Translations under genes and position numbers: made by a program
Part shown: in pieces, positions 10,159 to 58,628 of the stretch
Layout of the letters: each line of letters starts with the position of its first letter
Numbering within the stretch: the stretch's first letter is position 1
The notes under the pieces: generated by a model
Database searches by the model: none
What the model saw: the letters and a program-made list of their open reading frames with translations, nothing else
What the model was told of the DNA's origin: nothing
NCBI GenBank assembly: GCA_036496425.1
Contig: DASXLG010000202.1
Coordinates: 69 to 64,068, forward strand
Origin: Terriglobia bacterium
GTDB taxonomy: Bacteria; Acidobacteriota; Terriglobia; 20CM-2-55-15
Reading direction: 5' to 3'
Length of the DNA: 64,000 nt

Positions 10159-10762
10159 TTAGGGGGCGCACACCCGGATTCCCGAATTAATTCGGGAATT
10201 CGGGTCCACCGGGATGTCACCTTTATATGTGGACACGGCGCCGGTCCACCTTCCCAGGAGCACCGGAGATGGTTGGAACGCGGGCGGCCGCGGAGCAGGG
10301 TTGGTTGATGCGGGAGCTGCGCGCCACTTGGGCAAAAGCGTGACCAGGATCTTGTCAACAACCTCTCCTGGCCCGCAATCGATGGAGTTACACAGCACCA
10401 CGACGGCGATTTTCTCTGAAGGGACCAGCCGCAGGAACGAGGCGACTCCTGCCATGCTCCCATCGTGTGCAACGCTGCGATAACCATAGAAAGAATCGTT
10501 GATGAGCCACCCGATTCCATAGCCCGTACCGGCTTCCGGATTGGACGGCGCCGGTTGGCTTTTGCATCTCGTCGATCGAAGCATCCGAAAGGACCGGCGT
10601 CTGGTCGGCAAGATCTGCCTTCAGGTGGTACATCCCGAAGCGCACAAGATCATGCGCACTGGAGAAGATGGCGGATGCGCCGCGATGATCAAAATCGTAA
10701 AGGCGAGCGCGAAGAGGATGGGCATGAGCCATTCTGCCCGGACGCATTCTAAGATGCAACAT
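10159..10762 (-). pseudogene. beta-lactamase/serine-hydrolase family pseudogene (C-terminal fragment, frameshifted)
   Basis: Two overlapping ORFs in different frames (10388..10762 and 10159..10611). Together they cover the C-terminal part of a class-C beta-lactamase-like fold (...ASAIFSSAHDLVRFG..., then GYGIGWLINDSFYGYRSVAHDGSMAGVASFLRLVPSEKIAVVVLCN). The N-terminal S-x-x-K region is missing. Confidence 0.6.
10172..10205. repeat. 34-bp palindrome (ACCCGGATTCCCGAATT|AATTCGGGAATTCGGGT), member of the GC-rich palindromic element family
   Basis: 17-bp arms with one G-U wobble, located in the 10156-10160 gap region after the FN3-like gene. The core CCCGAATT..AATTCGGG also appears inside the elements at 24477 and 34806. 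Confidence 0.6.
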
Positions 10763-14570: not shown

Positions 14571-14627
14571 AGGTTCCTCCCTTGAAACGATGTGGAAGAA
14601 GAAACCACAAAAGGCACAAAAAGCACA

Positions 14628-21340: not shown

Positions 21341-22210
21341 TTGGCGCAATTATTCAAAGCAGCAGCGGGACTCGTGTTCGCCATTGTCATCGCTGGAACG
21401 TCCGTGGCGGCAGGTGCCCAGTGGTTCAAGTATCCGAGTCCGGGAGCGCCGCGGACGGCGAACGGAGAGGTCGATCTTTCGGCAGCGGCTCCGCGGCTGG
21501 CGAATGGCAAGCCGGATTTGTCGGGTGTCTGGATGACCGGAGATCCGTCCTGCGGAGTTGGAGGTCCGGCGAACCTCAGCGATCTGATCAAGCTGGCTCC
21601 TCCGTCACGCAAGTGTCCGCCTCGTGGGGCAGCGATGTCGCGCGAAGGTATCAACATGGGTGTCGACCTGCCCGGCGGGTTACCTTACCAACCCTGGCTC
21701 GCGGATCTCGTTCAAAAACGCACGGCGAGCCTGGCGATCGACGATCCCCATATCCGGTGCCTGCCCGACACGTTTCTGCGCGCATATGGGCTCCCCCATT
21801 ATCTGAAGTTTATTCAAACGCCGAATATTCTCGCGGTGCTCAATGAAATGAACGGTGTTTACCGCCAGGTGTTCACGGACGGGCGGCCCCTGCCGGACGA
21901 CCCGAATCCGTCCTGGCAAGGATATTCGTCGGCCACCTGGTCCGGCGATACTCTCGTCGTGGAGACGATCGGATTTCGCGACGACCTATGGATCGACTGG
22001 GACGGCAGCGTCATCACACAATCCGCAAAGGTTCGCGAGCGAATCCGGCGGCCGGATTTCGGACACCTCGAAATCGAAGTAACGGTGGATGATCCGAAAG
22101 CATATACGAAGCCATGGAGCGTGACGTTGCACCAGCAGTTCGCACCTGATACGGAGTTGATCGATGAAATCTGCGCCGAGAATGAGAAGTTCTCACGGCA
22201 GCTGAAGTAG
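21341..22210 (+). CDS. secreted hypothetical protein
   Basis: TTG start 6 nt after a GGGAGG SD. Signal peptide MAQLFKAAAGLVFAIVIAGTSVAAGAQ. 289 aa. Confidence 0.6.
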   Translation: MAQLFKAAAGLVFAIVIAGTSVAAGAQWFKYPSPGAPRTANGEVDLSAAAPRLANGKPDLSGVWMTGDPSCGVGGPANLSDLIKLAPPSRKCPPRGAAMSREGINMGVDLPGGLPYQPWLADLVQKRTASLAIDDPHIRCLPDTFLRAYGLPHYLKFIQTPNILAVLNEMNGVYRQVFTDGRPLPDDPNPSWQGYSSATWSGDTLVVETIGFRDDLWIDWDGSVITQSAKVRERIRRPDFGHLEIEVTVDDPKAYTKPWSVTLHQQFAPDTELIDEICAENEKFSRQLK

Positions 22211-22231: not shown

Positions 22232-22380
22232 GTGTGAGCGACCCCCTGCCCGCGCTTGCGCGGGCTGTCCCCCTGTGTCAGGGGGACAGTCAACAGTCAA
22301 ACCCCAGCAACTATCCTCCTGATGCAGGCCTGATACAGGGGGATAGCCGGCCGCCAGGCCGGCAGGGGGTCGCTCACAAG
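22232..22380. repeat. nested palindromic element (CAGGGGG/CCCCCTG heptamers) filling a convergent intergenic gap
   Basis: Perfect 18-bp terminal inverted repeat (TGTGAGCGACCCCCTGCC ... GGCAGGGGGTCGCTCACA). Internal hairpins CCCGCGC-ttg-GCGCGGG and CTGTCCCCCTG-tgt-CAGGGGGACAG are also present. Confidence 0.6.
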
Positions 22381-22385
22381 GACTG

Positions 22386-23690
22386 TCAGTAGCGGTTCGC
22401 GACGGGGAGTTCTTTAGCCGGATATAACGAAATGATCTTTGCGCCTTCCGGCGTGAGCACGACCATTTCTTCGATGCGCGCGGCGGAGACTCCGTCCGTT
22501 GCGGGACAGAATGTTTCGACGGCGAACACCATACCGGCCTTCAGCTCGTAGGGCTCGACGAAGGAATTCAGCCGCGAAATCAATGGACGCTCGTGCAAGC
22601 CCAATCCCAGACCGTGGCAGAAATTCAGGCCGAACGCGGCCATTTCGGTTTCGAAACCGATGTCCGAAGCCTTGGGTAGCTGCTCGGCGGCTTTGTCCGT
22701 CGTAACGCCCGGCTTGAGCATTTCGATAGTGTCGTCCATCCACTGCCGTGCGCGTTTGTAGGCATCGCGCTGCGGGGCGGTCGAGCTGCCGACCGAAAAG
22801 GTGCGGTAGTAGCAGGTTCGATAGCCGATAAACGAATGGATGATGTCGAAATATGCCTGATCGCCGGGGCGGATCAGACGATCCGTGAAATTGTGCGGGT
22901 GCGGACTGCAGCGTTCTCCGGCAATCGAGTTGATGCCTTCCACGCAATCCGATCCCATTTCATATAGCCGCTTCGAGGCCAGCGCCACGATCTGGCTTTC
23001 CTTCACGCCGGGTTTCAATGCGTCGGCGATGTCGTGATACACGCCGTCGACCATGCTGGACGCGATATTCAAAAGCGTGATTTCGTCGTGGCTCTTCACT
23101 TCGCGCGCATACAGCATCATCTGCTGTCCGTCGCGGACTTCGATTCCTTCTTCCTGAAGCGCGAAGAGCATCGGTGGCTCGCACACGTCCAGACCGAGCG
23201 GCATGTCCGCGACGCCTTCCTTCTTGAGAATCTCTTTGATCTCCTTCGCGGCCGCCTTGAACAGACCCACTTCGGGACCGATCGCGCCTCGCATGCCCGG
23301 ATTTCCCGCACGGACATGGTCCTCGTGCAGCCACGGACAGTAAATACGGTGATGGCGGGCCGCCGAACCGAAATCCCAGACCCACGGATCACCGGTTCCC
23401 GTCAGCAGGCAATAGCGGATCAGCTTGTCGCGAGCCCACTCACCAATAACGGTGCTCGAGATGTATCGGATGTTGTGCTGATCGAAGCAAAGCATGGCGC
23501 CGAGATCGGACTTCCCGAGCGATTCGCGCGTGCGCGCGAGGCGGTATCGATGAAGGCGGCGGAACTCCACCCGCTCTTCAAAATCCACCTGAGTAATTCC
23601 GGGCGCCTGCAGCGGGCGGTGCCAGCGATGCGCGGGCTTGAGATCGTCTTCATTAACGGGCAGAAATTCCGGTCTGTTCGACTTCTTCAT
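22386..23690 (-). CDS. M24 family metallopeptidase (Xaa-Pro peptidase / creatinase-like)
   Basis: 434 aa: a creatinase/prolidase-like N-terminal domain plus a pita-bread M24 C-terminal domain. SD before the ATG. Confidence 0.75.
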   Translation of the reverse strand: MKKSNRPEFLPVNEDDLKPAHRWHRPLQAPGITQVDFEERVEFRRLHRYRLARTRESLGKSDLGAMLCFDQHNIRYISSTVIGEWARDKLIRYCLLTGTGDPWVWDFGSAARHHRIYCPWLHEDHVRAGNPGMRGAIGPEVGLFKAAAKEIKEILKKEGVADMPLGLDVCEPPMLFALQEEGIEVRDGQQMMLYAREVKSHDEITLLNIASSMVDGVYHDIADALKPGVKESQIVALASKRLYEMGSDCVEGINSIAGERCSPHPHNFTDRLIRPGDQAYFDIIHSFIGYRTCYYRTFSVGSSTAPQRDAYKRARQWMDDTIEMLKPGVTTDKAAEQLPKASDIGFETEMAAFGLNFCHGLGLGLHERPLISRLNSFVEPYELKAGMVFAVETFCPATDGVSAARIEEMVVLTPEGAKIISLYPAKELPVANRY

Positions 23691-24853
23691 TAGAGCAACT
23701 CCGCTGGCTTGCGAATCGCTTCGGCCAGATCGTTCAGAAACATTGCGCCTTGAGCGCCATCGATCACACGATGGTCGCCGGATAATGTCAGCGTCATCAT
23801 CGGCCGCACAGCGGGCTTTCCATCCACGGCGACGACGCGGTCGGCGATGCGGCCAACCGCGAGGATTGCCGCCTGGGGCGGCAGAATGATCGCGCTGAAC
23901 GCATCGACGTTATACATGCCGAGATTCGTAATCGTGAACGTTCCGTTCGCCACATCCGAAGGCTTCAGACGGCCGCCGCGCGCTCGCTCGGTGAGATCTT
24001 TCCGCTGCTGCGCGATGCCCGGGAGCGAAGCCGCGTCGGCGTTGGGAATGACTGCTCCGACCACACCGTCCGTCACCGCCATGGCAAGACTGATGTTGAT
24101 GTTCGGGTTGAGGTGGATGCCGTTCCGGACCCAGCTCGCGTTGACCTTGGGATGCTTCTTCAACACGCGCGCGGTGAGTGAAACAAGGAGATCCGTAATG
24201 GTGACTTTATCGCGGCCCTGTTTTTCACGGGTTTCGAGCAGCGCTGTGGCATCGAGATCGCGAACAAGGAAGAAATGAGGAACCTGAGTCCAGCTCTGCG
24301 TCGTGCGCTCGGCCATGAGACGCGCGACGGCGCTGAGCGTGGCGGAGGCTGAAGTGGCGCCCGCGAGGACGTCGTCACTGATAATCGTGCCGGCGGGACC
24401 GGAGCCTTTCAGCGACCCGAGATCGACACCCTGCTCTTTAGCAAGCCGCCGCGCCTTCGGAGAAATCTGGGCGCGCGGGGACGAATCAGGGGTCGCACCC
24501 CCAATTCCTAGGTTTCGGAATTCGGGGTGCGACCCCTGATTCGTCCCCGATTTCGGGCCGGTAATTTTTCTGGCGGAAGGAGCCGCAGTGCCGGAGTCGG
24601 CCGGGGGCGTCTCGCCGGGAGCGACGATCCAGGCGATCGTCACGCCGACCGGAACGACATCACCCTCCTGAGACTTGACGCCGGCGAGCACACCGTCCGC
24701 CGCCGCTTCCACTTCCACGACGGCTTTGTCCGTCTCGATCTCGAGAATCGGCTCGCCCTTACTGATGGCATCGCCTTCTTTCTTGAGCCACGAAACGATC
24801 TTTCCCGTTTCCTGCGCCATTTCCAGCGCAGGCATCACTATGCTGGTTGCCAT
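23690..24853 (-). CDS. 2-oxoacid dehydrogenase complex E2 (dihydrolipoamide acyltransferase)
   Basis: Lipoyl domain (EIETDKAVVEVEA), PSBD (ISPKARRLAKEQGVDLGSLKGSGPAG) and a catalytic domain ending DHRVIDGAQGAMFLNDL. Confidence 0.9.
   Translation of the reverse strand: MATSIVMPALEMAQETGKIVSWLKKEGDAISKGEPILEIETDKAVVEVEAAADGVLAGVKSQEGDVVPVGVTIAWIVAPGETPPADSGTAAPSARKITGPKSGTNQGSHPEFRNLGIGGATPDSSPRAQISPKARRLAKEQGVDLGSLKGSGPAGTIISDDVLAGATSASATLSAVARLMAERTTQSWTQVPHFFLVRDLDATALLETREKQGRDKVTITDLLVSLTARVLKKHPKVNASWVRNGIHLNPNINISLAMAVTDGVVGAVIPNADAASLPGIAQQRKDLTERARGGRLKPSDVANGTFTITNLGMYNVDAFSAIILPPQAAILAVGRIADRVVAVDGKPAVRPMMTLTLSGDHRVIDGAQGAMFLNDLAEAIRKPAELL
24477..24548. repeat. 72-nt perfect palindromic element lying in-frame inside the E2 linker
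   Basis: 25-bp perfect stem (GGGGACGAATCAGGGGTCGCACCCC / GGGGTGCGACCCCTGATTCGTCCCC), a 6-bp inner stem (AATTCC/GGAATT) and an 8-nt loop. Length is 72 nt (24 codons). It encodes the linker segment between the lipoyl domain and the PSBD. Confidence 0.7.
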
Positions 24854-27764: not shown

Positions 27765-28712
27765 ATGAGCAACTCCAATGACATAGGGGAGCGGAGCGAC
27801 CGTGAGCCCGGCAGGGCGAAACAAGGAATTAACGTCGGATTCATCGGGCTCGGCCGGATGGGCCGGGGAATGGCAGGCCGCATCCTCGACGGAGGCCACG
27901 ATCTGGCCGTCTATGACGTGATGCGCGAACAGACCACCGAACTCGAAAAGGCCGGCGCACGAGTGGCTTCGTCCATCACGGATCTCTGCACAGGACGCGA
28001 CGTCGTCGTCACGATGCTGGTCGAGGACTCGACTGTCCGGGATGTGGTTCTGTCGACGAACGGCATGCGCGACTCGCTCAGCCCGGGAGCGATCCACCTG
28101 GCGATGGGAACGTATGGTGTTGCAACGATTCGGAAGCTGGCTTCCGCGCACGCCGAAGCGAAACAGATTCTGGTCGCGGCCCCGGTTCTGGGAAGGCCGG
28201 ATCTTGCCGCCTCCGGACAACTTGGCATCGTCTCCGCCGGACCCGCTGACGCCGTGGAGCGCTGCGCTCCTTTGTTCAAAGTGATGGGCCGCAGGACCTT
28301 CCATGCCGGCGCGCCGCCCGACGCCGCCACCGCGATCAAACTCGCGAATAACGGCGTTCTCGGCGCGGCCATGATCGCAATGGCTGAAGCATTTTCGCTG
28401 ATACGCAAATATAATGTGGCGCCACAGGTTCTTTACGACGTCATGACGGAAGGCCTGTTCGCCGGCGCTCCCGCTTATACGGGCTACGGCAAAACGATGG
28501 TCGATGAAACATATGACCGCGTCGGGTCGCCCGTTACCGTCGGATTGAAGGACGCCAATCTGATCCTCGCCGCCGCCGACATCGCGCGCGTTCCCATGCC
28601 GAGCCTGAATGTCTACCGCGACCGGCTGCTCGGCGCGATCGCGCACGGCGACGGAGACAGGGATCAGGCGGTGCTGGCGAGAGAGCAGGCAAGAGCGAGT
28701 GGGTTGGAATAA
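27765..28712 (+). CDS. NAD(P)-dependent HIBADH-family dehydrogenase (second, divergent copy)
   Basis: Trimmed to the ATG at 27765, which is preceded by GGGAGG. INVGFIGLGRMGRGMA... Rossmann motif. Confidence 0.8.
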   Translation: MSNSNDIGERSDREPGRAKQGINVGFIGLGRMGRGMAGRILDGGHDLAVYDVMREQTTELEKAGARVASSITDLCTGRDVVVTMLVEDSTVRDVVLSTNGMRDSLSPGAIHLAMGTYGVATIRKLASAHAEAKQILVAAPVLGRPDLAASGQLGIVSAGPADAVERCAPLFKVMGRRTFHAGAPPDAATAIKLANNGVLGAAMIAMAEAFSLIRKYNVAPQVLYDVMTEGLFAGAPAYTGYGKTMVDETYDRVGSPVTVGLKDANLILAAADIARVPMPSLNVYRDRLLGAIAHGDGDRDQAVLAREQARASGLE

Positions 28713-28719
28713 AACCTTT

Positions 28720-28807
28720 ATTGGAGATTCGAGATTGGAGGTTGGAAATTAGAAATTTGCGGCACCGAAAATTTCCAATTTCCAACCTCCAATCTCGAAT
28801 TTCCAAT
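28720..28807. repeat. AT-rich palindromic element, copy 1 (TTGGAAATT family)
   Basis: 38-nt arms with 2 mismatches (ATTGGAGATTCGAGATTGGAGGTTGGAAATTAGAAATT ... AATTTCCAATTTCCAACCTCCAATCTCGAATTTCCAAT) and a 12-nt loop. GC about 33% in a ~60% GC background. Sits between the stop at 28712 and the ATG at 28828. Confidence 0.7.
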
Positions 28808-28827
28808 AAGTTTATAGGAGTTAAAAC

Positions 28828-30024
28828 ATGGATCTAGGTAATGGTCTCGGTCATCTGACGTATTCAACGCTGGTCCACCCGGGCGACACGTGGGAGGACA
28901 TGTGGCACAGCCTGATAACGTATGTGCCAAAGGTGAAGGAACGGATTTCTCCGAAGGAGCCGTTCGGCATTTCCCTTCGCCTTGCAAACGCATCCGCCGA
29001 GCGTCTCGTCAATGACAAGAAGGAACGGGACAAGCTGAAGAAGTTTCTCGCCGACAATGACATGTATCTTTACACGGTGAACGCGTTCCCGTATGGGCCG
29101 TTCAAGGGACGCGTCGTCAAGGAACAGGTTTATGAACCGGATTGGCGGAGCGATGAGCGAACGCAGTACACCATCAATGTCGCCGAAATCCTGGGCGATG
29201 TCGCTCCGGAAGGAAGCTCGCCCTCGATCCAGAGCGCTCCACTTGGTTTCAAGCCCCGCGTGACCGGACCGGACGTAGTCGCAAGCTATACCGAGCACGT
29301 CCTGCGCGTTGCCGCCCGCCTGGTCGATATCCATGCCCGCACCGGCCGCATGGTTGGCCTGGCGCTCGAACCCGAGCCGTTCTGCTTCCTGGAAACCACG
29401 GACGAAGCCGTGGACTACTTCACGAATCATCTGTACTCCGGCGCCGCCGCCGCGCGGGTGGCAAAGCTGGCCGGCATTCCGATCTCCGAAGCGCACATCG
29501 CATTGCGCCGGCACGTGGGTGTCGTGTTCGACATCTGCCATCAGGCGGTCGAATACGAGAACATTTCGGAATCGCTCCAGAAGCTGGTGAACGCCGGCAT
29601 CCCGATTTTCAAACTTCAGGAGGCCGCAGCGCTCTACATGCCGGAAGTGAACCCGGGCGTCATCGATGTGCTGACGCGCTTCGCGGACACGATCTACCTG
29701 ACACAGACGATGGAAAAGAAGGAAGGCCGGTTCAATCGATTCCTCAACCTCGAAGACGCCTTCGCAGCGTGGAAACAGAGTTCGGGTCCGCGGGAGTGGC
29801 GGACCCACATTCACGTGCCGGTTTTTCTCGACGACCTCGGGATGTTCCGGACCACGCGTTTCGCGATCGAAGACGCCTTGCGCTATCACAAGGCGAATCC
29901 GCTCTCACGGCAACTCGAAATCGAGACGTATACGTGGGATGTGCTGCCCGCAAGCTTGAAGACCGGCGATGTGGTGGATTACGTCTGCCGTGAACTGGAG
30001 TGGGTCAAGAGCCAGCTTTTGTAA
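28828..30024 (+). CDS. xylose-isomerase-like TIM-barrel protein (sugar phosphate isomerase/epimerase; EboE-like?)
   Basis: 398 aa. AGGAG SD. Conserved His/Glu-containing blocks of AP-endonuclease-2 / xylose-isomerase-like TIM barrels (HIHVPVF...). The EboE assignment is tentative. Confidence 0.65.
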   Translation: MDLGNGLGHLTYSTLVHPGDTWEDMWHSLITYVPKVKERISPKEPFGISLRLANASAERLVNDKKERDKLKKFLADNDMYLYTVNAFPYGPFKGRVVKEQVYEPDWRSDERTQYTINVAEILGDVAPEGSSPSIQSAPLGFKPRVTGPDVVASYTEHVLRVAARLVDIHARTGRMVGLALEPEPFCFLETTDEAVDYFTNHLYSGAAAARVAKLAGIPISEAHIALRRHVGVVFDICHQAVEYENISESLQKLVNAGIPIFKLQEAAALYMPEVNPGVIDVLTRFADTIYLTQTMEKKEGRFNRFLNLEDAFAAWKQSSGPREWRTHIHVPVFLDDLGMFRTTRFAIEDALRYHKANPLSRQLEIETYTWDVLPASLKTGDVVDYVCRELEWVKSQLL

Positions 30025-30027
30025 CTA

Positions 30028-30104
30028 CTGGAAATTCGAAATTGGAAGTTGGAAATTTCTTATATAAGAAATGAAGCAACCTCCAATTTCGAATTTCCAA
30101 TAAG
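30028..30104. repeat. AT-rich palindromic element, copy 2 (TTGGAAATT family)
   Basis: CTGGAAATTCGAAATTGGAAGTTGGAAATTTC ... GAAATGAAGCAACCTCCAATTTCGAATTTCCAATAAGTT. Shares the arm sequence and the 3' end (CGAATTTCCAATAAGTT) with copy 1, in the same orientation. Confidence 0.7.
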
Positions 30105-30108
30105 TTCT

Positions 30109-31287
30109 TTACGACCGAATAAGCGAATACCTGGGGTCCGCCGCCAGACACTCTGCTTCCGGCAGTCCAAGTTCCTTCTTCACGATATTGGTGCCGCGCA
30201 CCAACGCCACCGTCTTGTAATACGCATGGCGGCGGCTCATACCTTCACGTCCCATGCCGCAGTCCGTCGTTACAGCGAGGCGGTCGGGTGAAATAAACTT
30301 CAACGACTGACGCAGCAGGTCGGCCACTTCTTCGGGACTTTCCACCTGGAGCGTGTGGTGGTCGATGACGCCGATGGCGATTTTCTTTCCCGTGATCCCT
30401 TTGCACACGGCCTCGAGGTCCAGCGCATTCGAGCTCTTCATTTCGAACGTGATGAGATCCGCATCGACTTGATTGAGAACTTCAAGGGCCGGTTTGTAAG
30501 ACTGCACGTGCGCGAACATGCGCTGCTGAGACGGATTGCCCCAGCAGGTATGACACCAGACTTCCGTCTTCGCCCGCAGTCCTTTGACGGTGTTGTTGAA
30601 CACCTTCAACATGAAATCCAGCGTGATGTCCTTGTTTGGAACCGGGCGCGCAGCGAGTAAATGGAGCTGCGGATCCTCGATCTGAATCACCTGGCATCCG
30701 GCGTCCGCGACATCGTGCAATTCCTTATTGAATGCGTCGCTCAAAGCCATGATGCGCGACGGCAGATCCTTATAGTGCTCGTCCTGGACGGCATATGCGA
30801 CCAGCTCCGGCGCCACCGTGCCGAACTTCACCGGACGGTTCGTCAGGCGCTGCGCGGCTTTCCAGACTTCGGGGTACTGCATTTCTCCGGGCGCGACAGG
30901 GCCGACGATCTTCGGCATGACGCGGGCTTCAAGATAGTCATGCAGGATGTGGCCGCGCGGGAATCCGATGCCACCGGCGCCGGCGCGGGCGAGTTGCGGA
31001 TGGCTGGCTTCGAATCCGGCCATGTGGCGCGGAGGATAGCTGGTCCACGTCTGTCCGCCGACGTCCTGATCGAACCGGCAGTCGCCATCCGTAACGATGT
31101 CCAGGCCCGCATTCTCCTGGTCGCGGAGATAGCAGGCCAGCGCATCCGTATATTGTTCGCGGAACTTGTTGTTCGTCATCGCATCAACAAATGATTTCGT
31201 GCCCAGGTTCTCCTGGTACCAGCTCGGACGCGGAAGCGAACCGATGATGGATGTGGGCAAAACCTTACCTGCAGTCGCTTTCAGCAT
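30109..31287 (-). CDS. cobalamin-independent methionine synthase (MetE C-terminal domain)-like protein
   Basis: 392 aa. IGSLPRP N-terminal motif and C-terminal CGMG... blocks typical of the MetE/UroD-like methyltransferase fold. Confidence 0.75.
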   Translation of the reverse strand: MLKATAGKVLPTSIIGSLPRPSWYQENLGTKSFVDAMTNNKFREQYTDALACYLRDQENAGLDIVTDGDCRFDQDVGGQTWTSYPPRHMAGFEASHPQLARAGAGGIGFPRGHILHDYLEARVMPKIVGPVAPGEMQYPEVWKAAQRLTNRPVKFGTVAPELVAYAVQDEHYKDLPSRIMALSDAFNKELHDVADAGCQVIQIEDPQLHLLAARPVPNKDITLDFMLKVFNNTVKGLRAKTEVWCHTCWGNPSQQRMFAHVQSYKPALEVLNQVDADLITFEMKSSNALDLEAVCKGITGKKIAIGVIDHHTLQVESPEEVADLLRQSLKFISPDRLAVTTDCGMGREGMSRRHAYYKTVALVRGTNIVKKELGLPEAECLAADPRYSLIRS

Positions 31288-31299
31288 GATGGCTCCCGA

Positions 31300-32322
31300 T
31301 TACTTTATTTTTTCAACTATGCCGGATGCCGCCGATTTCACGATCGCTTCGGTGACGGCGGCCCCGTGGATCATTTCTTCAACTGGGATAGGAAACGCCG
31401 GACCGCCGCTTGCCGCCTTGCCGAAGGCATCGAGGCATTCGCGGCCGGCGTCCAGCGTGGCGGCCTGCCATATTTCCGGCTCTCCCTTGGCGGGCTGGAA
31501 TTTGCACGTGCCGAACAGACGCGTTCGCCGCTCTTCGGAAGACGCGCCGGCCACGTGGGTCATGCCTTCGAGGCGGACGGACCCTTTGGAACCGAACACC
31601 TGAAAGCTGAATCCCGGGCCTGTAGCCGTCAATGTACCGAGATATCCGGACATTCCATCCTTCATGCGGAACAGTATCGACGTGGTGTCGTCGCTGTCGA
31701 CTTCAACGACCCGCCTGAAGCTCTGACAGTATACGTGGTCGATCGAACCGCACAAATCGATCATTCCGTCGATCGCGTGAACGCCCATCGGCGTCAGGCC
31801 GCCGCACGGCGTTTCATCACGATGAGCGCGCCATTGGGTCGGCTTGAGCAGCAGAGCGTTTGCAAACGTCATGTTCGCTTCGACGTGCATGATGGTACCG
31901 AGACCTCCCGAGCGTATGCGGTCGCGAAGTTTGGTCATTTCCGGATGGAACCGGCGGTTGTAGCCGAGACCCAGCGTAACGCCCGCCTTACGGGTGGCGT
32001 TTACCGCGGCTTCGGCATCACTGGTGGTCAGTGCGAAGGGTTTCTCGCAAAAGACATGCATGCCTGCCTGCGCGGCGGCAACCACCTGCCGCGAGTGCAG
32101 GGAGTGCGGTGTGCAAAGCACCACCGCCTGAACATTCGAATTTTTCAGAAGGGCGTCGTAGTTTTCCGCAAGCTGCAGCTTGTGACTGTCCGCGAACGTT
32201 TTGATTTCCGGAGATATCGTCCGCGTCGTGCCGGCAACGAACCGGATGAAATCACTGCCCTGCGCAGACTCGACGATCGTCTTGCCCCACCAGCCTAATC
32301 CGACAATAGCCGCATTAATCAT
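31300..32322 (-). CDS. Gfo/Idh/MocA family oxidoreductase
   Basis: MINAAIVGLGWWG... Rossmann fold plus EKP motif (VFCEKP). Confidence 0.85.
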   Translation of the reverse strand: MINAAIVGLGWWGKTIVESAQGSDFIRFVAGTTRTISPEIKTFADSHKLQLAENYDALLKNSNVQAVVLCTPHSLHSRQVVAAAQAGMHVFCEKPFALTTSDAEAAVNATRKAGVTLGLGYNRRFHPEMTKLRDRIRSGGLGTIMHVEANMTFANALLLKPTQWRAHRDETPCGGLTPMGVHAIDGMIDLCGSIDHVYCQSFRRVVEVDSDDTTSILFRMKDGMSGYLGTLTATGPGFSFQVFGSKGSVRLEGMTHVAGASSEERRTRLFGTCKFQPAKGEPEIWQAATLDAGRECLDAFGKAASGGPAFPIPVEEMIHGAAVTEAIVKSAASGIVEKIK

Positions 32323-34805: not shown

Positions 34806-34859
34806 AGGGTCGCACACCTGAATTCCCGAATTCGAATTCGGGAGTTCAGGTGTGCGACC
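34806..34859. repeat. 54-bp near-perfect palindrome (GGGTCGCACACCTGAATTCCCGAATTC|GAATTCGGGAGTTCAGGTGTGCGACCC)
   Basis: 27-bp arms with a single G-U wobble and no loop. It overlaps the last codons and stop of the GT2 gene, and ends about 10 nt before the MetE-like start. Coordinates are +/-1. Confidence 0.65.
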
Positions 34860-36279
34860 CCCTCCGCCCCATGCGCCCCACATTCCGCGCGAAGCGGTCC
34901 CAACTCCTATCGCCGCGGAGAAATTGCACGACGCCTTTTGCGTTCGCATACACGAGGATCGGCCGATAAAGCAGCAGATCCAGCGGCGCAATCAGCGCCA
35001 TTCGTGTCAGCGCGCTCACCCGGTAATAGTGGAAGGCCGATTCGTTCAACCACAAACTGATCTCCGACATGATTCCGAGCGCAAGCACCTGAATCCCGAG
35101 CAGGGAAAAGAACTCTTTGAGATCCACCAATCGCAGCCAAAGCCCAAGACCCAGGGAAGCCAGGACGATCAACTGTACGAATGGCCCGAAACACTCGGAA
35201 ATAATCAAATACGGTAACCCGACAAACCCGAGCGCGCCGTAACGTGGCCGGAATAGAACTCTTCGGTAGTGCCACACCGTCTCCAGGATCACGCGCTGCC
35301 AGCGCGCCCGCTGGCTGATAAGCGCTGTAAGCCGCTCAGGGCCTTCGGTCGCCCCCACGATATCGGGAAGCGACAGGACGCGGCCGGGCCTCTTGTCGCG
35401 CTTGTACCTCTCCAGAACCCGGACTGTCATTTCGAGGTCTTCGCAGGTGAAAGCGGGCGAGAAGCCTCCAACCTCGAGCACGACGTCACGGCGCCAGATG
35501 GCAAAAGCCCCGCTGGCGCACAGCATGATGTTCATGCGGCTCCATGCCAGGCGATTGTTGAGAAATGACCGAAGAATCTCCAGGTGCTGGAAGTTGATCC
35601 AGAGATGCCGATCGATGTTCTTGTTTCCGATTTCGCCGGCCTCCTCCTGAAGTTCATGCCGGACGGCAACAATGCTGGTAATACCCAGCACTCCGGCCGG
35701 ATCTTTAATCGCCGGGCGCATCGCAACCAGCAGCGCATCGGGTTCGTATGCCGCATCGCCGTCGACGCAGCAGATATAACGGTCGCGCGCGAAGTTTACT
35801 CCGCAGTTCAACGCGTCGGCTTTGCCGCCGTTGCATTTATCGATGACGATCAGCCGTGGATCGGTCCGGCTGCGATAAATAGCACGCACGGGGCTGGTTT
35901 GCAGGAGCCGCCGCGCTGTCACACTGACCGACTGCAAGACGAATTCCCGGCGAAGTGCTCCAAGCGTTTCGTCTTTTGATCCGTCGTTAACGACGACAAT
36001 TTCAAATTCCGGATACTCAAAGGCCAGGAGCCGGCGCACCACCGCTCCAATCATGCCCTGCTCGTTGTAGACCGGGACAATGACGGAGACGGGGATGGTG
36101 AAGCGCGAATCCGACAACGCATCATAATCGTCCGTATGCGACTCGGCCGTACGTCTCCGGTTTTCCAACATGGCGACAATGGCCATGAACAGAGTGAAGG
36201 CGTAAAGCAGCATCAGGTATGCAAAACTGAGCAGAAAGGTCCAATCGAAGAATGGTCTTAGCGCGAGCCCTGAAATCAT
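34846..36279 (-). CDS. family 2 glycosyltransferase, processive synthase type (PgaC/IcaA/BcsA-like)
   Basis: 477 aa with N- and C-terminal TM segments. Carries the GT2 DxD and QxxRW-type blocks (...VNDGSKDET..., ...QRARWQRV...). Confidence 0.85.
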   Translation of the reverse strand: MISGLALRPFFDWTFLLSFAYLMLLYAFTLFMAIVAMLENRRRTAESHTDDYDALSDSRFTIPVSVIVPVYNEQGMIGAVVRRLLAFEYPEFEIVVVNDGSKDETLGALRREFVLQSVSVTARRLLQTSPVRAIYRSRTDPRLIVIDKCNGGKADALNCGVNFARDRYICCVDGDAAYEPDALLVAMRPAIKDPAGVLGITSIVAVRHELQEEAGEIGNKNIDRHLWINFQHLEILRSFLNNRLAWSRMNIMLCASGAFAIWRRDVVLEVGGFSPAFTCEDLEMTVRVLERYKRDKRPGRVLSLPDIVGATEGPERLTALISQRARWQRVILETVWHYRRVLFRPRYGALGFVGLPYLIISECFGPFVQLIVLASLGLGLWLRLVDLKEFFSLLGIQVLALGIMSEISLWLNESAFHYYRVSALTRMALIAPLDLLLYRPILVYANAKGVVQFLRGDRSWDRFARNVGRMGRRGSHT

Positions 36280-43571: not shown

Positions 43572-43663
43572 TCTGTAGTCGCGGACTTTAGCCCGCGTTC
43601 CGCCCTCGCCCGGCAACATAGTGGTCGAGACTGGAACGCGGGCTGAAGCCCGCGACTACATCT
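43572..43663. repeat. ~92-nt inverted-repeat element (TGTAGTCGCGG...CCGCGACTACA arms)
   Basis: ~29-nt arms with 3 mismatches, separated by ~30 nt. Each arm also contains an internal GCGGGCT..AGCCCGC hairpin. Confidence 0.55.
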
Positions 43664-58538: not shown

Positions 58539-58628
58539 AAAAGGGGAAGGAACGCAAGAAGCACAAAAGGCACAAGAAGGGCGGGTCTTTCTTGTGCCTT
58601 TTGTGCTTCTTGCGTTCCTTCCCCTTTT
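58539..58628. terminator. perfect 40-bp-stem hairpin (purine-rich / pyrimidine-rich arms) immediately after the GspS-like stop codon
   Basis: 58539-58578 (GAAAAGGGGAAGGAACGCAAGAAGCACAAAAGGCACAAGAA region) pairs perfectly with 58589-58628, with a 10-nt loop. On the minus-strand transcript it is followed by CCUUUUCGUGUUUCG. The hairpin ends 36 nt before the HK start codon. Confidence 0.5.

Follow-up and report, generated by a model that had tools for sequence, protein, structure and literature searches.

Whether a gene that stands between two copies of the same palindromic repeat has been carried there by them, is controlled by them, or was in place before they arrived is the question raised by a short segment of the window, as the whole 64,000-nucleotide stretch of Terriglobia DNA analysed here is called. 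The enclosed gene, eboE (28828..30024, + strand), encodes a 398-aa EboE-family TIM-barrel protein (NCBIfam NF035939), and an AT-rich hairpin is found on either side of it. Both hairpins are probably dispersed, non-coding palindromic repeats of a REP/MITE-like kind, and later additions around a gene already in place.

The two hairpins and the gene between them

Copy 1 of the palindromic repeat (28713-28815, 103 nt, an extent set by comparison with relatives) lies between the stop codon of a HIBADH-like gene and the eboE ribosome-binding site, and copy 2 (30025-30108, 84 nt) fills the whole gap from the eboE stop to the stop of a convergent MetE-like gene. The preliminary description located both correctly, with extents (28720-28807 and 30028-30104) that prove slightly short, and its estimate of about 33% GC against a background of about 60% was a fair one, the measured values being 36% (28713-28815) and 31% (30025-30108) against 58.3% for the whole window. 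The arms of copy 1 (28718-28762 and 28765-28809) are 45 nt each and 93% complementary, and those of copy 2 (30026-30051 and 30077-30102) are 92% complementary and enclose an additional inner 7-bp stem. As RNA, copy 1 folds with an energy of -61.7 kcal/mol when read from the + strand and of -62.4 kcal/mol when read from the - strand (z -14.7 and -13.7 relative to shuffled sequences); the corresponding values for copy 2 are -37.2 and -43.2 kcal/mol (z -9.2 and -11.0). The hairpin pair as first reported is thus real: both members were found, both are very stable, their arms have sequence in common, and a single gene lies between them. The 3' end said to be identical in the two, CGAATTTCCAATAAGTT, is present at 28796-28812 and 30090-30106. 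Their supposed common orientation has little meaning, since the elements are near-perfect palindromes, and the two copies also fall in different subfamilies. All four arms are built of tandem degenerate heptamers (TRF, period 7), a feature absent from the earlier account.

Copy 1 belongs to a B-like subfamily, with extra heptamers added and a GC-rich apex, GCGGCACCG, and scores 65 with the nhmmer family profile. Copy 2 is of the A/C subfamily, with an internal loop (GAAA/UGAAG) beneath its 7-bp apical stem; it scores 69 and is 90-94% identical to the metagenome copies L017, L022, L026 and L037. The same profile finds no copy in the 64-kb window other than these two, and another 10 kb of the source genome yields none. 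Consistent with fixation, both copies recur in identical form in contigs from two JGI metagenomes (L050 and L051), and a contig from a Logan run (L052) carries copy 2 and, where the contig breaks off, the right end of copy 1.

The eboE product matches the NCBIfam equivalog model TIM_EboE (NF035939) over residues 10-394 at 404.9 bits, the cutoff being 250, and Pfam yields only a faint AP_endonuc_2 match (E 0.12). Its homologues number more than 5000, and the more than 120 clusters at 78% identity or above are all about 398 aa in length. A Pfam scan of the open reading frames of the 64-kb window did not reveal the remaining genes of the canonical ebo cluster. The eboE ribosome-binding site, AGGAG (28817..28821, + strand), follows copy 1 closely on the 3' side and is undamaged; it is also conserved at the element-free junctions of L005, L045, L046, L047 and L048. 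Upstream stands the HIBADH-like gene (27810..28712, + strand), a beta-hydroxyacid dehydrogenase with the Pfam domains NAD_binding_2 and NAD_binding_11 and NCBIfam matches below cutoffs; its reading frame is open from 27639, and comparison with 300-aa orthologues places the likely start near 27810. Orthologues of 294-330 aa are found directly upstream of eboE in L042, L044, L045, L046, L005 and the P0004 contig. The MetE-like gene (30109..31287, - strand; Meth_synt_2, Pfam PF01717), the stop codon of which abuts the right end of copy 2, is convergent with eboE also in the P0004 contig, L005, L046, L047, L048 and L049.

The same junctions in relatives

In all relatives with the same neighbourhood (81-95% protein identity) the HIBADH-like gene is still followed directly by eboE, with an element-free gap of 1-143 nt. 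The gap measures 1 nt in L042 and L043, 12 nt in L045 and L046, 27 nt in L005, L047 and L048 and 40 nt in the P0004 contig, against 115 nt in the window, and in L045 and L046 the junction reads TGA|AGGAGTAGCAGC|ATG, free of any insert. Because the relatives have a short gap without the element, copy 1 is, as far as comparison with 'empty' sites from relatives only ~81-84% identical in nucleotides allows, a 103-nt insertion between the HIBADH-like stop codon and the eboE ribosome-binding site. A clean target-site duplication is not seen: most copies of the repeat have TA on both sides, but conservation and complementarity extend over another 7 bases beyond it, and the empty site of L045 and L046, TGA|AGGAG, contains no TA.

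The inter-stop gap between eboE and the MetE-like gene is occupied in relatives by other hairpins. L046, L047 and L048 have a GCCACAAAAGGCACAAAAGG hairpin (-41.6 to -49.6 kcal/mol), L049 has a CACAAGAAG hairpin (-70.6 kcal/mol), and in L005 the hairpin is half deleted. A GC-rich hairpin (-35.5 kcal/mol) follows eboE in L044, where the downstream gene is beyond view, and in L042, where the gene after eboE is co-directional, the gap holds no strong hairpin. Since the hairpins in this same gap of the relatives are unrelated to it, copy 2 is, on the same kind of comparison, the replacement of an older, unrelated hairpin. The neighbours of eboE are different ones in L006 and L007, and on the upstream side in L049, and the relatives in which the context differs are likewise element-free.

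A dispersed family at gene ends

The arm pattern GGARATTCGARATTGGARGTTG, used to find loci in soil metagenome contigs, recovered 34, among them about 30 full-length hairpins of the same family. The family consensus, RRRAACYTATTGGAAATTCGAAATTGGAAGTTG-apex-CAACTTCCAATTTCGAATTTCCAATARGTTYYY, is ~95 nt long; its arm units are the degenerate heptamers TTGGAAA and TTCGAAA, the invariant positions of which keep a strict 7-nt rhythm (TTnGA), and several apex subfamilies can be distinguished. The approximately 30 recovered copies are all intergenic and each folds as one long hairpin, some being perfect palindromes (L020, -70.1 kcal/mol). The core is highly conserved in the family alignment, and conservation drops to background level 11 nt beyond it; the consensus ends are RRRAAC-YTA...TAR-GTTYYY, and just outside the core purines prevail in the left flank and pyrimidines in the right. 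Copies in L008, L014, L017 and L041 lie inside longer palindromes. Either the element has inserted into hairpins that were already there or it is itself longer than the core.

Nearly all of these copies are situated 0-13 nt from stop codons, or 20-50 nt where they are wrapped in outer palindromic modules, and the junctions that they occupy are convergent in 7 cases, co-directional in ~12 and divergent in at most one (0-1). Their neighbours include guaB and genes for acetyl-CoA synthetase, glutamate dehydrogenase and peptidases; a further copy was found between 23S and 5S rRNA, 14 nt upstream of the latter. They occur in both orientations and are mostly single. The earlier proposal of a REP-type element family is therefore supported as to kind, given 34 metagenome loci with about 30 full-length hairpins at the 3' ends of genes with unrelated neighbours. 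A tendency to flank genes, which had also been considered, is not borne out: pairs in adjacent gaps are about as frequent as copy density predicts, and the bracketing of eboE is coincidental, at about chance expectation. Against this it counts that, with only two copies in ~74 kb of source genome, adjacency has a prior of ~3%, and that L036 repeats the arrangement of the window, with a single open reading frame between a B-type copy and, after it, a C-type copy.

Linked, uncompensated asymmetries recur between copies (the T.C mismatch of CC', the TCGCAGG arm variant and the A/C internal loop), which is what copying from master elements produces. Free mixing and matching of arms by recombination was considered and rejected, TCGCAGG being always paired with a C' arm, and discrete subfamilies are preferred because the arm variants are linked.

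A scan of a genome collection gave four matches in four phyla, all heptamer tracts, of which one lies directly upstream of a start codon and only one, in L002 (an Acidobacteria gp5 MAG), is a hairpin of the family, in decayed form. No family match was obtained from the viral contigs and plasmids searched, and a literature search on the element sequence found no description of it. The hairpins gave only sub-threshold matches to plant miRNA precursors in Rfam, which were rejected as chance hits to generic long hairpins.

Likeness to known repeats

On the best reading the family is previously undescribed, and closest in build to the STRR hairpins of cyanobacteria. In filamentous cyanobacteria these consist of 7-bp tandem units and are intergenic, in one case within an operon (hupS-hupL), at a short distance from where the gene before them ends; it has been suggested, though not proven, that they affect transcript stability or translational coupling (PMC2670836). 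The likeness is one of architecture, 7-bp tandem units that pair into intergenic hairpins, and does not show common descent: the host here is a soil bacterium of ~58% GC outside the cyanobacteria, and the unit repeated through the genome is a defined ~95-nt palindrome with conserved ends and subfamilies, whereas that of STRR is a heptamer array. The units themselves are also different, those of STRR being of the CCCCAGT type and those here TTGGAAA/TTCGAAA.

REP, BIME and REPIN elements are multi-copy extragenic hairpins, ~100 nt long as doublets, that are located at stop codons and in operons and form subfamilies (PMC3116915, PMC3733652, PMC3333891). The many extragenic copies and the long hairpin of inverted doublets are found here as well, but the conserved GTAG or CGTC tag at one unit end by which REPs and REPINs are defined (PMC3733652) is not seen in the alignment of 30 copies, the arms are AT-rich heptamer arrays and not short GC-rich palindromes, and a cognate RAYT was not found in the 64-kb window. 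A separate hairpin of the window (43574-43660) has the GTAG...CTAC ends typical of REPINs.

Bacterial MITEs such as Correia, ERIC and RUP are small, non-coding, multi-copy, intergenic elements with terminal inverted repeats, which can be co-transcribed with flanking genes and vary in presence or absence between relatives (PMC3184786). The present elements likewise have terminal inverted repeats, are small, multi-copy and non-coding, and are present or absent among relatives, but here a single near-perfect palindrome, its loop no longer than 4 nt, makes up the entire element, and an insertion sequence with matching ends that could be its parent is not known. In no fetched locus was an arm pair separated by a coding region.

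The most probable course of events is that the family spread, as selfish DNA of the REP/REPIN or MITE type, in a group of soil bacteria with genomes of ~58-60% GC, and that it settles in, or may be tolerated only at, the short spaces that follow stop codons. A Pfam scan of 48 open reading frames of the 64-kb window identified no transposase, RAYT or integrase, and none adjoins the copies checked, so that it is from distribution only that mobility is deduced. Copy 1 split a formerly tight junction between the HIBADH-like gene and eboE, and copy 2 took over the gap of an older hairpin between convergent genes. Each copy, once transcribed, is expected to form a very long AU-rich stem, which may act as a barrier to 3' exonucleases and as a substrate for the double-strand-specific RNase III; translational coupling may have been lost at copy 1, and at copy 2 the stem might insulate the convergent transcripts from one another.

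Alternative explanations

It is possible, if rather less likely, that the hairpins primarily serve the host at gene 3' ends as terminators, insulators or stabilisers, with selection acting on structure and the repeat nature secondary. For copy 2, this and the selfish-repeat account overlap. All of the relatives read with convergent eboE and MetE-like genes, except L005, have a strong hairpin in the gap, and by sequence these hairpins fall into at least three families unrelated to one another; the co-directional L042 has no strong one after eboE; copies avoid divergent promoter regions, and other hairpin families of the window are also at gene ends, one of them with A4/T4 flanks like those of a bidirectional terminator. 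No T-run follows either copy, however, and scans for promoters and for the terminator consensus call nothing at copy 1 or copy 2, where stems of 26-45 bp and 31-39% GC stand in place of the short GC-rich stem and T-run of an intrinsic terminator. An efficient terminator would moreover be harmful upstream of 5S rRNA and inside the conserved two-gene junction of copy 1; the missing T-run and the copy in the 23S-5S spacer together argue against efficient termination. Nor is there arm-to-arm covariation, since alignment columns 30 and 78 combine as AU in 10 copies, GU in 9, AC in 6 and GC in 5, the pattern of independence. The window pair had looked compensated (GAG/CTC in one copy, GAA/TTC in the other), but across 30 copies the arms vary independently, and compensation was therefore dropped as evidence for selection on pairing. 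Strand folding energies, with G:U set against A:C mismatches, reveal no bias towards the transcribed strand (6 cases vs 5). How the asymmetric subfamilies are oriented with respect to the gene before them (4:1, 3:1 and 2:0) was also considered; the splits are not significant given that the orientation labels were assigned post hoc.

It is very unlikely that the heptamer arrays serve to bind a DNA- or RNA-binding protein (a putative regulator, nucleoid protein or RNA chaperone), to which the palindrome would present two arrays. The strict TTnGA rhythm would suit such a role, as would the heptamer tracts of the same type, without a palindrome, that other phyla have, one of them in front of a start codon; AT-rich islands in GC-rich genomes are typical of sites bound by nucleoid proteins, and the elements form such islands. 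Against this, the copies share neither a neighbouring gene function nor a regulator gene, near-perfect self-complementarity over 75-100 bp far exceeds that of known operators, and no candidate binding protein was found. Nor do the positions of the copies support the regulator dyads suggested in the preliminary description: they are found not at promoters but at 3' ends, where they follow the stop codons of housekeeping genes that have nothing in common, and in an rRNA spacer.

That the elements are attC-like recombination sites (CALIN) and eboE a present or past mobile cassette, a version of the cassette-like mobilisation first suggested, is scarcely credible, even with the place of eboE between two imperfect palindromes just past stop codons, ends of AAC...GTT like those of the attC R''/R' boxes, the variable context of eboE in L006, L007 and upstream in L049, and the second single open reading frame between two copies in L036: the bases flanking AAC and GTT are RRR/YYY, of the opposite purine/pyrimidine class to the YYY/RRR of attC (R'' = RYYYAAC, R' = GTTRRRY); the stems pair almost perfectly and lack both conserved extrahelical bases and an unpaired central spacer; there are no arrays of same-orientation sites with variable cassettes and no cassette-like gene variability; the window has no integrase; the GC content of eboE (58.6%) equals that of the window; most copies elsewhere are single intergenic hairpins, in either orientation, beside housekeeping genes; and eboE keeps its position behind the HIBADH-like gene in element-free relatives, those with a different context having no such elements either.

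Wider pattern and implications

Long palindromes of at least four families without relation to one another are present, each with arms of 7-9-nt tandem units, and nesting is evident in L008, L014 and L017, where TTGGAAATT cores lie within CCACAGAG / GGAAC modules. One tandem-unit palindrome sits in frame inside a gene. A more far-reaching proposal, and on balance an unlikely one, is that the lineage has a modular 'hairpin-in-hairpin' system in which palindrome families replace one another at gene ends and are sometimes nested. Were this true, there would be a dedicated insertion or exchange of palindromes at hairpin tips or stop-proximal sites, portable 3'-end structures would be supplied by it, and the host would have to tolerate perfect palindromes of 90-150 bp, such as are cleaved in E. 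coli (PMC4245961).

With respect to annotation, a false lead is removed, eboE here being no cassette, and the repeat family now has a consensus and a profile that allow soil metagenomes to be screened for it or masked. The several palindrome families with arms of short tandem units are relevant to the biology of REPs, REPINs and MITEs and to palindrome stability, and overturn nothing known. The inter-stop gap downstream of eboE provides a clean example of intergenic hairpin turnover, at least three unrelated hairpins occupying the same gap across relatives, and the conserved two-gene junction upstream, split by a 103-nt AU-rich stem, is a natural test case for the effects of such an element on operon expression.

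The hairpin pair and the enclosed eboE gene

It is clear that the hairpins are real: one open reading frame in the window sequence is enclosed by two long AT-rich hairpins, as the preliminary description had it, and the arm sequence and identical 3' end ascribed there to both elements are likewise present (17 nt identical). Copy 1 (28713-28815) has arms of 45 nt each at 28718-28762 and 28765-28809, 93% complementary, and each strand gives a folding energy near -62 kcal/mol, with z about -14 relative to dinucleotide-shuffled sequence. In copy 2 (30025-30108) outer arms of 26 nt, 92% complementary, lead to an internal loop and then an apical stem of 7 bp, with folding energies of -37.2 and -43.2 kcal/mol (z -9 to -11). 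GC content is 36% in copy 1, 31% in copy 2 and 58.3% in the window, and all four arms are made up of degenerate heptamers in tandem, for example ATTGGAG ATTCGAG ATTGGAG GTTGGAA. Searched with a family profile, the window yields no other copy, and 10 kb more of this genome yields none at all.

The enclosed frame (28828-30024, plus strand) encodes an EboE-family TIM-barrel protein (NCBIfam NF035939, 404.9 bits; cutoff 250), of a large, slow-evolving family; the earlier label of xylose-isomerase-like TIM barrel holds broadly, through a faint Pfam match of that type, and the precise family is EboE. The ebo cluster has been described (PMC6282210; PMC5133447). The window eboE is not part of a canonical ebo cluster, and its partners are a HIBADH-like dehydrogenase (27810-28712, plus strand), a GFO/IDH/MocA oxidoreductase and a MetE-like protein (30109-31287, minus strand). 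This association is kept down to relatives of 81% identity, which suggests that the pathway context of this EboE subfamily is a different one. In L042 and L043, contigs of relatives, all four genes point the same way; compared with them (L042 5257-7476), the window lineage has the MetE-like and GFO/IDH/MocA pair (window 30109-32322) in inverted orientation, one breakpoint of the inversion coinciding with the eboE 3' end, where hairpins lie.

A dispersed family of AT-rich repeats

The degenerate arm pattern used for searches, GGARATTCGARATTGGARGTTG, gave 4 matches in species-representative genomes (a set outside which the source genome falls), none in viral contigs and 34 loci in metagenome contigs, two samples supplying most. 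About 30 of these 34 are full-length hairpins built like the window copies, and the recovery of dispersed, multi-copy hairpins supports the earlier suggestion of a REP-type element family. The copies share RRRAACYTA-TTGGAAATTCGAAATTGGAAGTTG-apex-CAACTTCCAATTTCGAATTTCCAA-TARGTTYYY as their consensus. Core positions are almost fully conserved; past TGGA/TCCA, conservation remains clear over some 10 nt and by position 11 has dropped to background, which puts the element unit at about 95 nt. There are four apex subfamilies: A/C, with an internal loop GAAA/UGAAG (12 copies, window copy 2 among them); CC', whose 7 copies conserve a T.C mismatch; AA, with 2 copies that are perfect palindromes (e.g. 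L020 at -70.1 kcal/mol); and B, with apex GAAATCGGATTTC (about 9 copies), of which window copy 1 is an expanded relative. The asymmetries are linked, the TCGCAGG arm variant being invariably paired with the C' arm, and such co-inheritance is the signature of master-element copying rather than of independent decay.

REP superfamilies are defined by GTAG/CGTC tags (PMC3733652), which, unlike the canonical REPIN, the AT-rich family lacks; it has the features of a MITE, except that no target-site duplication could be demonstrated and no parent element is known. In architecture it comes closest, among described elements, to the heptamer STRR hairpins of filamentous cyanobacteria, which have been found close to the 3' ends of genes and between hupS and hupL (PMC2670836). 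The AT-rich family is previously undescribed, and the kind of element is already known. Tracts of GGAGATT / GGAAATT heptamers without a palindrome occur in MAGs labelled Anaerolineales, Chloroflexia and Verrucomicrobiales (L001 3525-3580, L003 5895-6010, L004 5120-5170); the L003 tract abuts a minus-strand start codon and so has the look of 5' UTR sequence.

Flanking genes were called by codon-position GC, and at the loci where this was possible copies lie 0-13 nt from a stop codon, or 20-50 nt where extra palindromic modules wrap the core. Junctions are convergent in 7 cases, co-directional in about 12 and divergent in at most 1, and the adjoining genes are ordinary ones (guaB, acetyl-CoA synthetase, glutamate dehydrogenase, peptidases). 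Much of the position right after stop codons arises because intergenic gaps are tiny and the element is the whole gap; tiny gaps do not explain why divergent promoter regions have so few copies. One copy (L034 490-573) occupies a 23S-5S rRNA spacer, with 85 nt separating it from the end of 23S and 14 nt from the start of 5S, and is therefore part of the rRNA precursor. In a post hoc comparison, 0/7 B-type copies and 7/15 copies of the A/C types were at convergent junctions (p ~0.04). At L032 2534-2581 a B-type right arm stands alone, spanning apex to CCAATAAG terminus, with an ATG 12 nt downstream.

Insertion and replacement around eboE

Where eboE directly follows the HIBADH-like gene in relatives, the gap is 1 nt in L042/L043 (81% protein identity), 12 nt in L045/L046 (94%; TGA|AGGAGTAGCAGC|ATG), 27 nt in L005, L047 and L048 (95%; ACACAGAG present twice), 40 nt in the P0004 contig (93%) and 143 nt, GC-rich and without the element, in L044 (86%). 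The window gap is 115 nt, and its additional 103 nt (28713-28815) lie precisely in between the conserved AGGAG and the stop codon of the HIBADH-like gene, which makes copy 1 an insertion into a once-tight junction. Other neighbours adjoin eboE in L006/L007 (90%) and on the upstream side of L049, where no AT-rich copy was found. Both elements recur, identical to those of the window, in contigs L050 and L051, each from a different JGI metagenome; contig L052, from a Logan run, carries copy 2 and, at its edge, the right end of copy 1.

Downstream, eboE and the MetE-like gene converge, and the gap compared was the one separating their stop codons. It holds an unrelated GCCACAAAAGGCACAAAAGG hairpin in L046, L047 and L048 (-41.6 to -49.6 kcal/mol), a CACAAGAAG hairpin in L049 (-70.6 kcal/mol) and just the right half of a GCCACAAAAGGCACAAAAGG-type hairpin in L005. 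Some hairpin is kept in every convergent-arrangement relative whose DNA was read, half-deleted in L005, and because these hairpins are unrelated to it, copy 2 replaced an older hairpin. L042, with a co-directional gene next to eboE, has no strong hairpin after eboE; L044, whose downstream gene is not visible, has a GC-rich one (-35.5 kcal/mol). The deletion in L005 (5820-5871) took the hairpin's left arm and the last eboE codons; EboE there ends in a new C-terminus (…ELEWDLFVPFVANPLTIG), and its gene overlaps the convergent MetE-like one. The event is an example of palindrome-associated deletion extending into a gene. In L044 (5245-5537 and 630-1781) a MITE-like element with 33-nt terminal inverted repeats (TAGTGTCCTGTCTCACAAATAGCTGGATAATTG) comes after the hairpin, and on the upstream side there is an IS110-family transposase gene.

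That the elements bracket a single gene was part of the earlier description. Copy density, estimated from extra copies in ascertained loci, is about 1 per 35-40 kb, at which about 5% of copies are expected to have a second in the neighbouring gap; 2-3 of about 33 do (the window, L036 and L032), so that neighbouring pairs are about as frequent as density predicts. L036 has a 196-aa ORF flanked by B-type and CC'-type copies, and L032 one full copy and the solo right arm. Within the window pair and the L036 pair alike, the two members differ in subfamily, which means that neither arose from the other by a local hop. The proposed regulator dyad, or operator, was not borne out, the copies being at the 3' ends of unrelated genes. 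Cassette-like mobilisation of the enclosed gene is refuted by HIBADH-like/eboE adjacency in relatives without the element, and the elements have no attC box consensus, extrahelical bases or array organisation, with no integrase or transposase among the 48 window ORFs scanned.

Possible functions of the element

No T-run follows either window copy, and a consensus scan at both found no terminator and no promoter; the rRNA-spacer copy and an intra-operon copy argue against efficient termination. Among 30 copies, arm-to-arm covariation was not detected, polymorphic purine positions being independent between arms (columns 30/78: AU 10, GU 9, AC 6, GC 5, the independence expectation). Strand-specific stability and G:U content relative to the transcribed strand gave no bias (6 versus 5 cases), and asymmetric subfamilies showed no significant preference for one orientation with respect to the gene upstream. 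None of these results requires RNA-level selection; a structural role has its sole positive hint in the comparison across relatives at the convergent junction. Function we infer from general behaviour: an AU-rich stem of 26-45 bp in a transcript should, as REP elements indicate, block 3' exonucleases, and should serve as an RNase III substrate, and a stem starting a few nt from a stop codon could disturb terminating ribosomes.

Other palindromes

Further palindromes occur in the window and related loci. A near-perfect one of 74 nt (24476-24549; GGGGACGAATCAGGGGTCGCACCCC...) lies in frame within the E2 acyltransferase gene (23690-24853, minus strand), in the linker between lipoyl and E3-binding domains, and encodes ~SGTNQGSHPEFRNLGIGGATPDSS; the L005 orthologue has an ordinary linker without it. 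It resembles the Rickettsia palindromic elements, which insert into coding regions. A palindrome at 34807-34860, at a gene boundary and overlapping a glycosyltransferase gene's stop codon, has GGGTCGCAC in common with it, and another boundary palindrome (10172-10205) has the 8-nt unit AATTCGGG. The 87-nt hairpin at 43574-43660, unrelated to the AT-rich family, has arms that begin TGTAGTCGCGG and finish CCGCGACTACA; in its GC-rich, REP-like units and its GTAG...CTAC termini it looks like a classical REPIN.

Arm units of 9 nt (CACAAGAAG / CACAAAAGG) characterise a second hairpin family, found at window 58539-58628 and 14602-14627, L049 1283-1383 and L046 2931-3002; its window copy, with perfect 40-nt arms and AAAA/TTTT flanks, directly follows a glutathionylspermidine-synthase-like gene's stop codon. 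In relatives, the eboE 3' gap is filled by members of this family and of a related one. A composite GC-rich hairpin cluster of 146 nt (22233-22378; about -116 kcal/mol including flanks) occupies the gap of convergent genes 21341-22210 (plus) and 22386-23690 (minus).

The TTGGAAATT core is nested in longer palindromes at L008 1692-1833, L014 ~580-740, L017 ~610-720 and L041 ~950-1050; the outer modules are CCACAGAGCCACAGGGAACAAAGAAAAC in L008 (a 146-nt hairpin, -108.6 kcal/mol) and the locus-specific GGTGACG...CGTCACC in L041. Nested cores suggest either insertion at hairpin tips or outward palindrome growth. The pattern of nesting and replacement is documented here without explanation, and the novelty that remains lies in several short-tandem-unit palindrome families that nest in and replace each other at gene ends.
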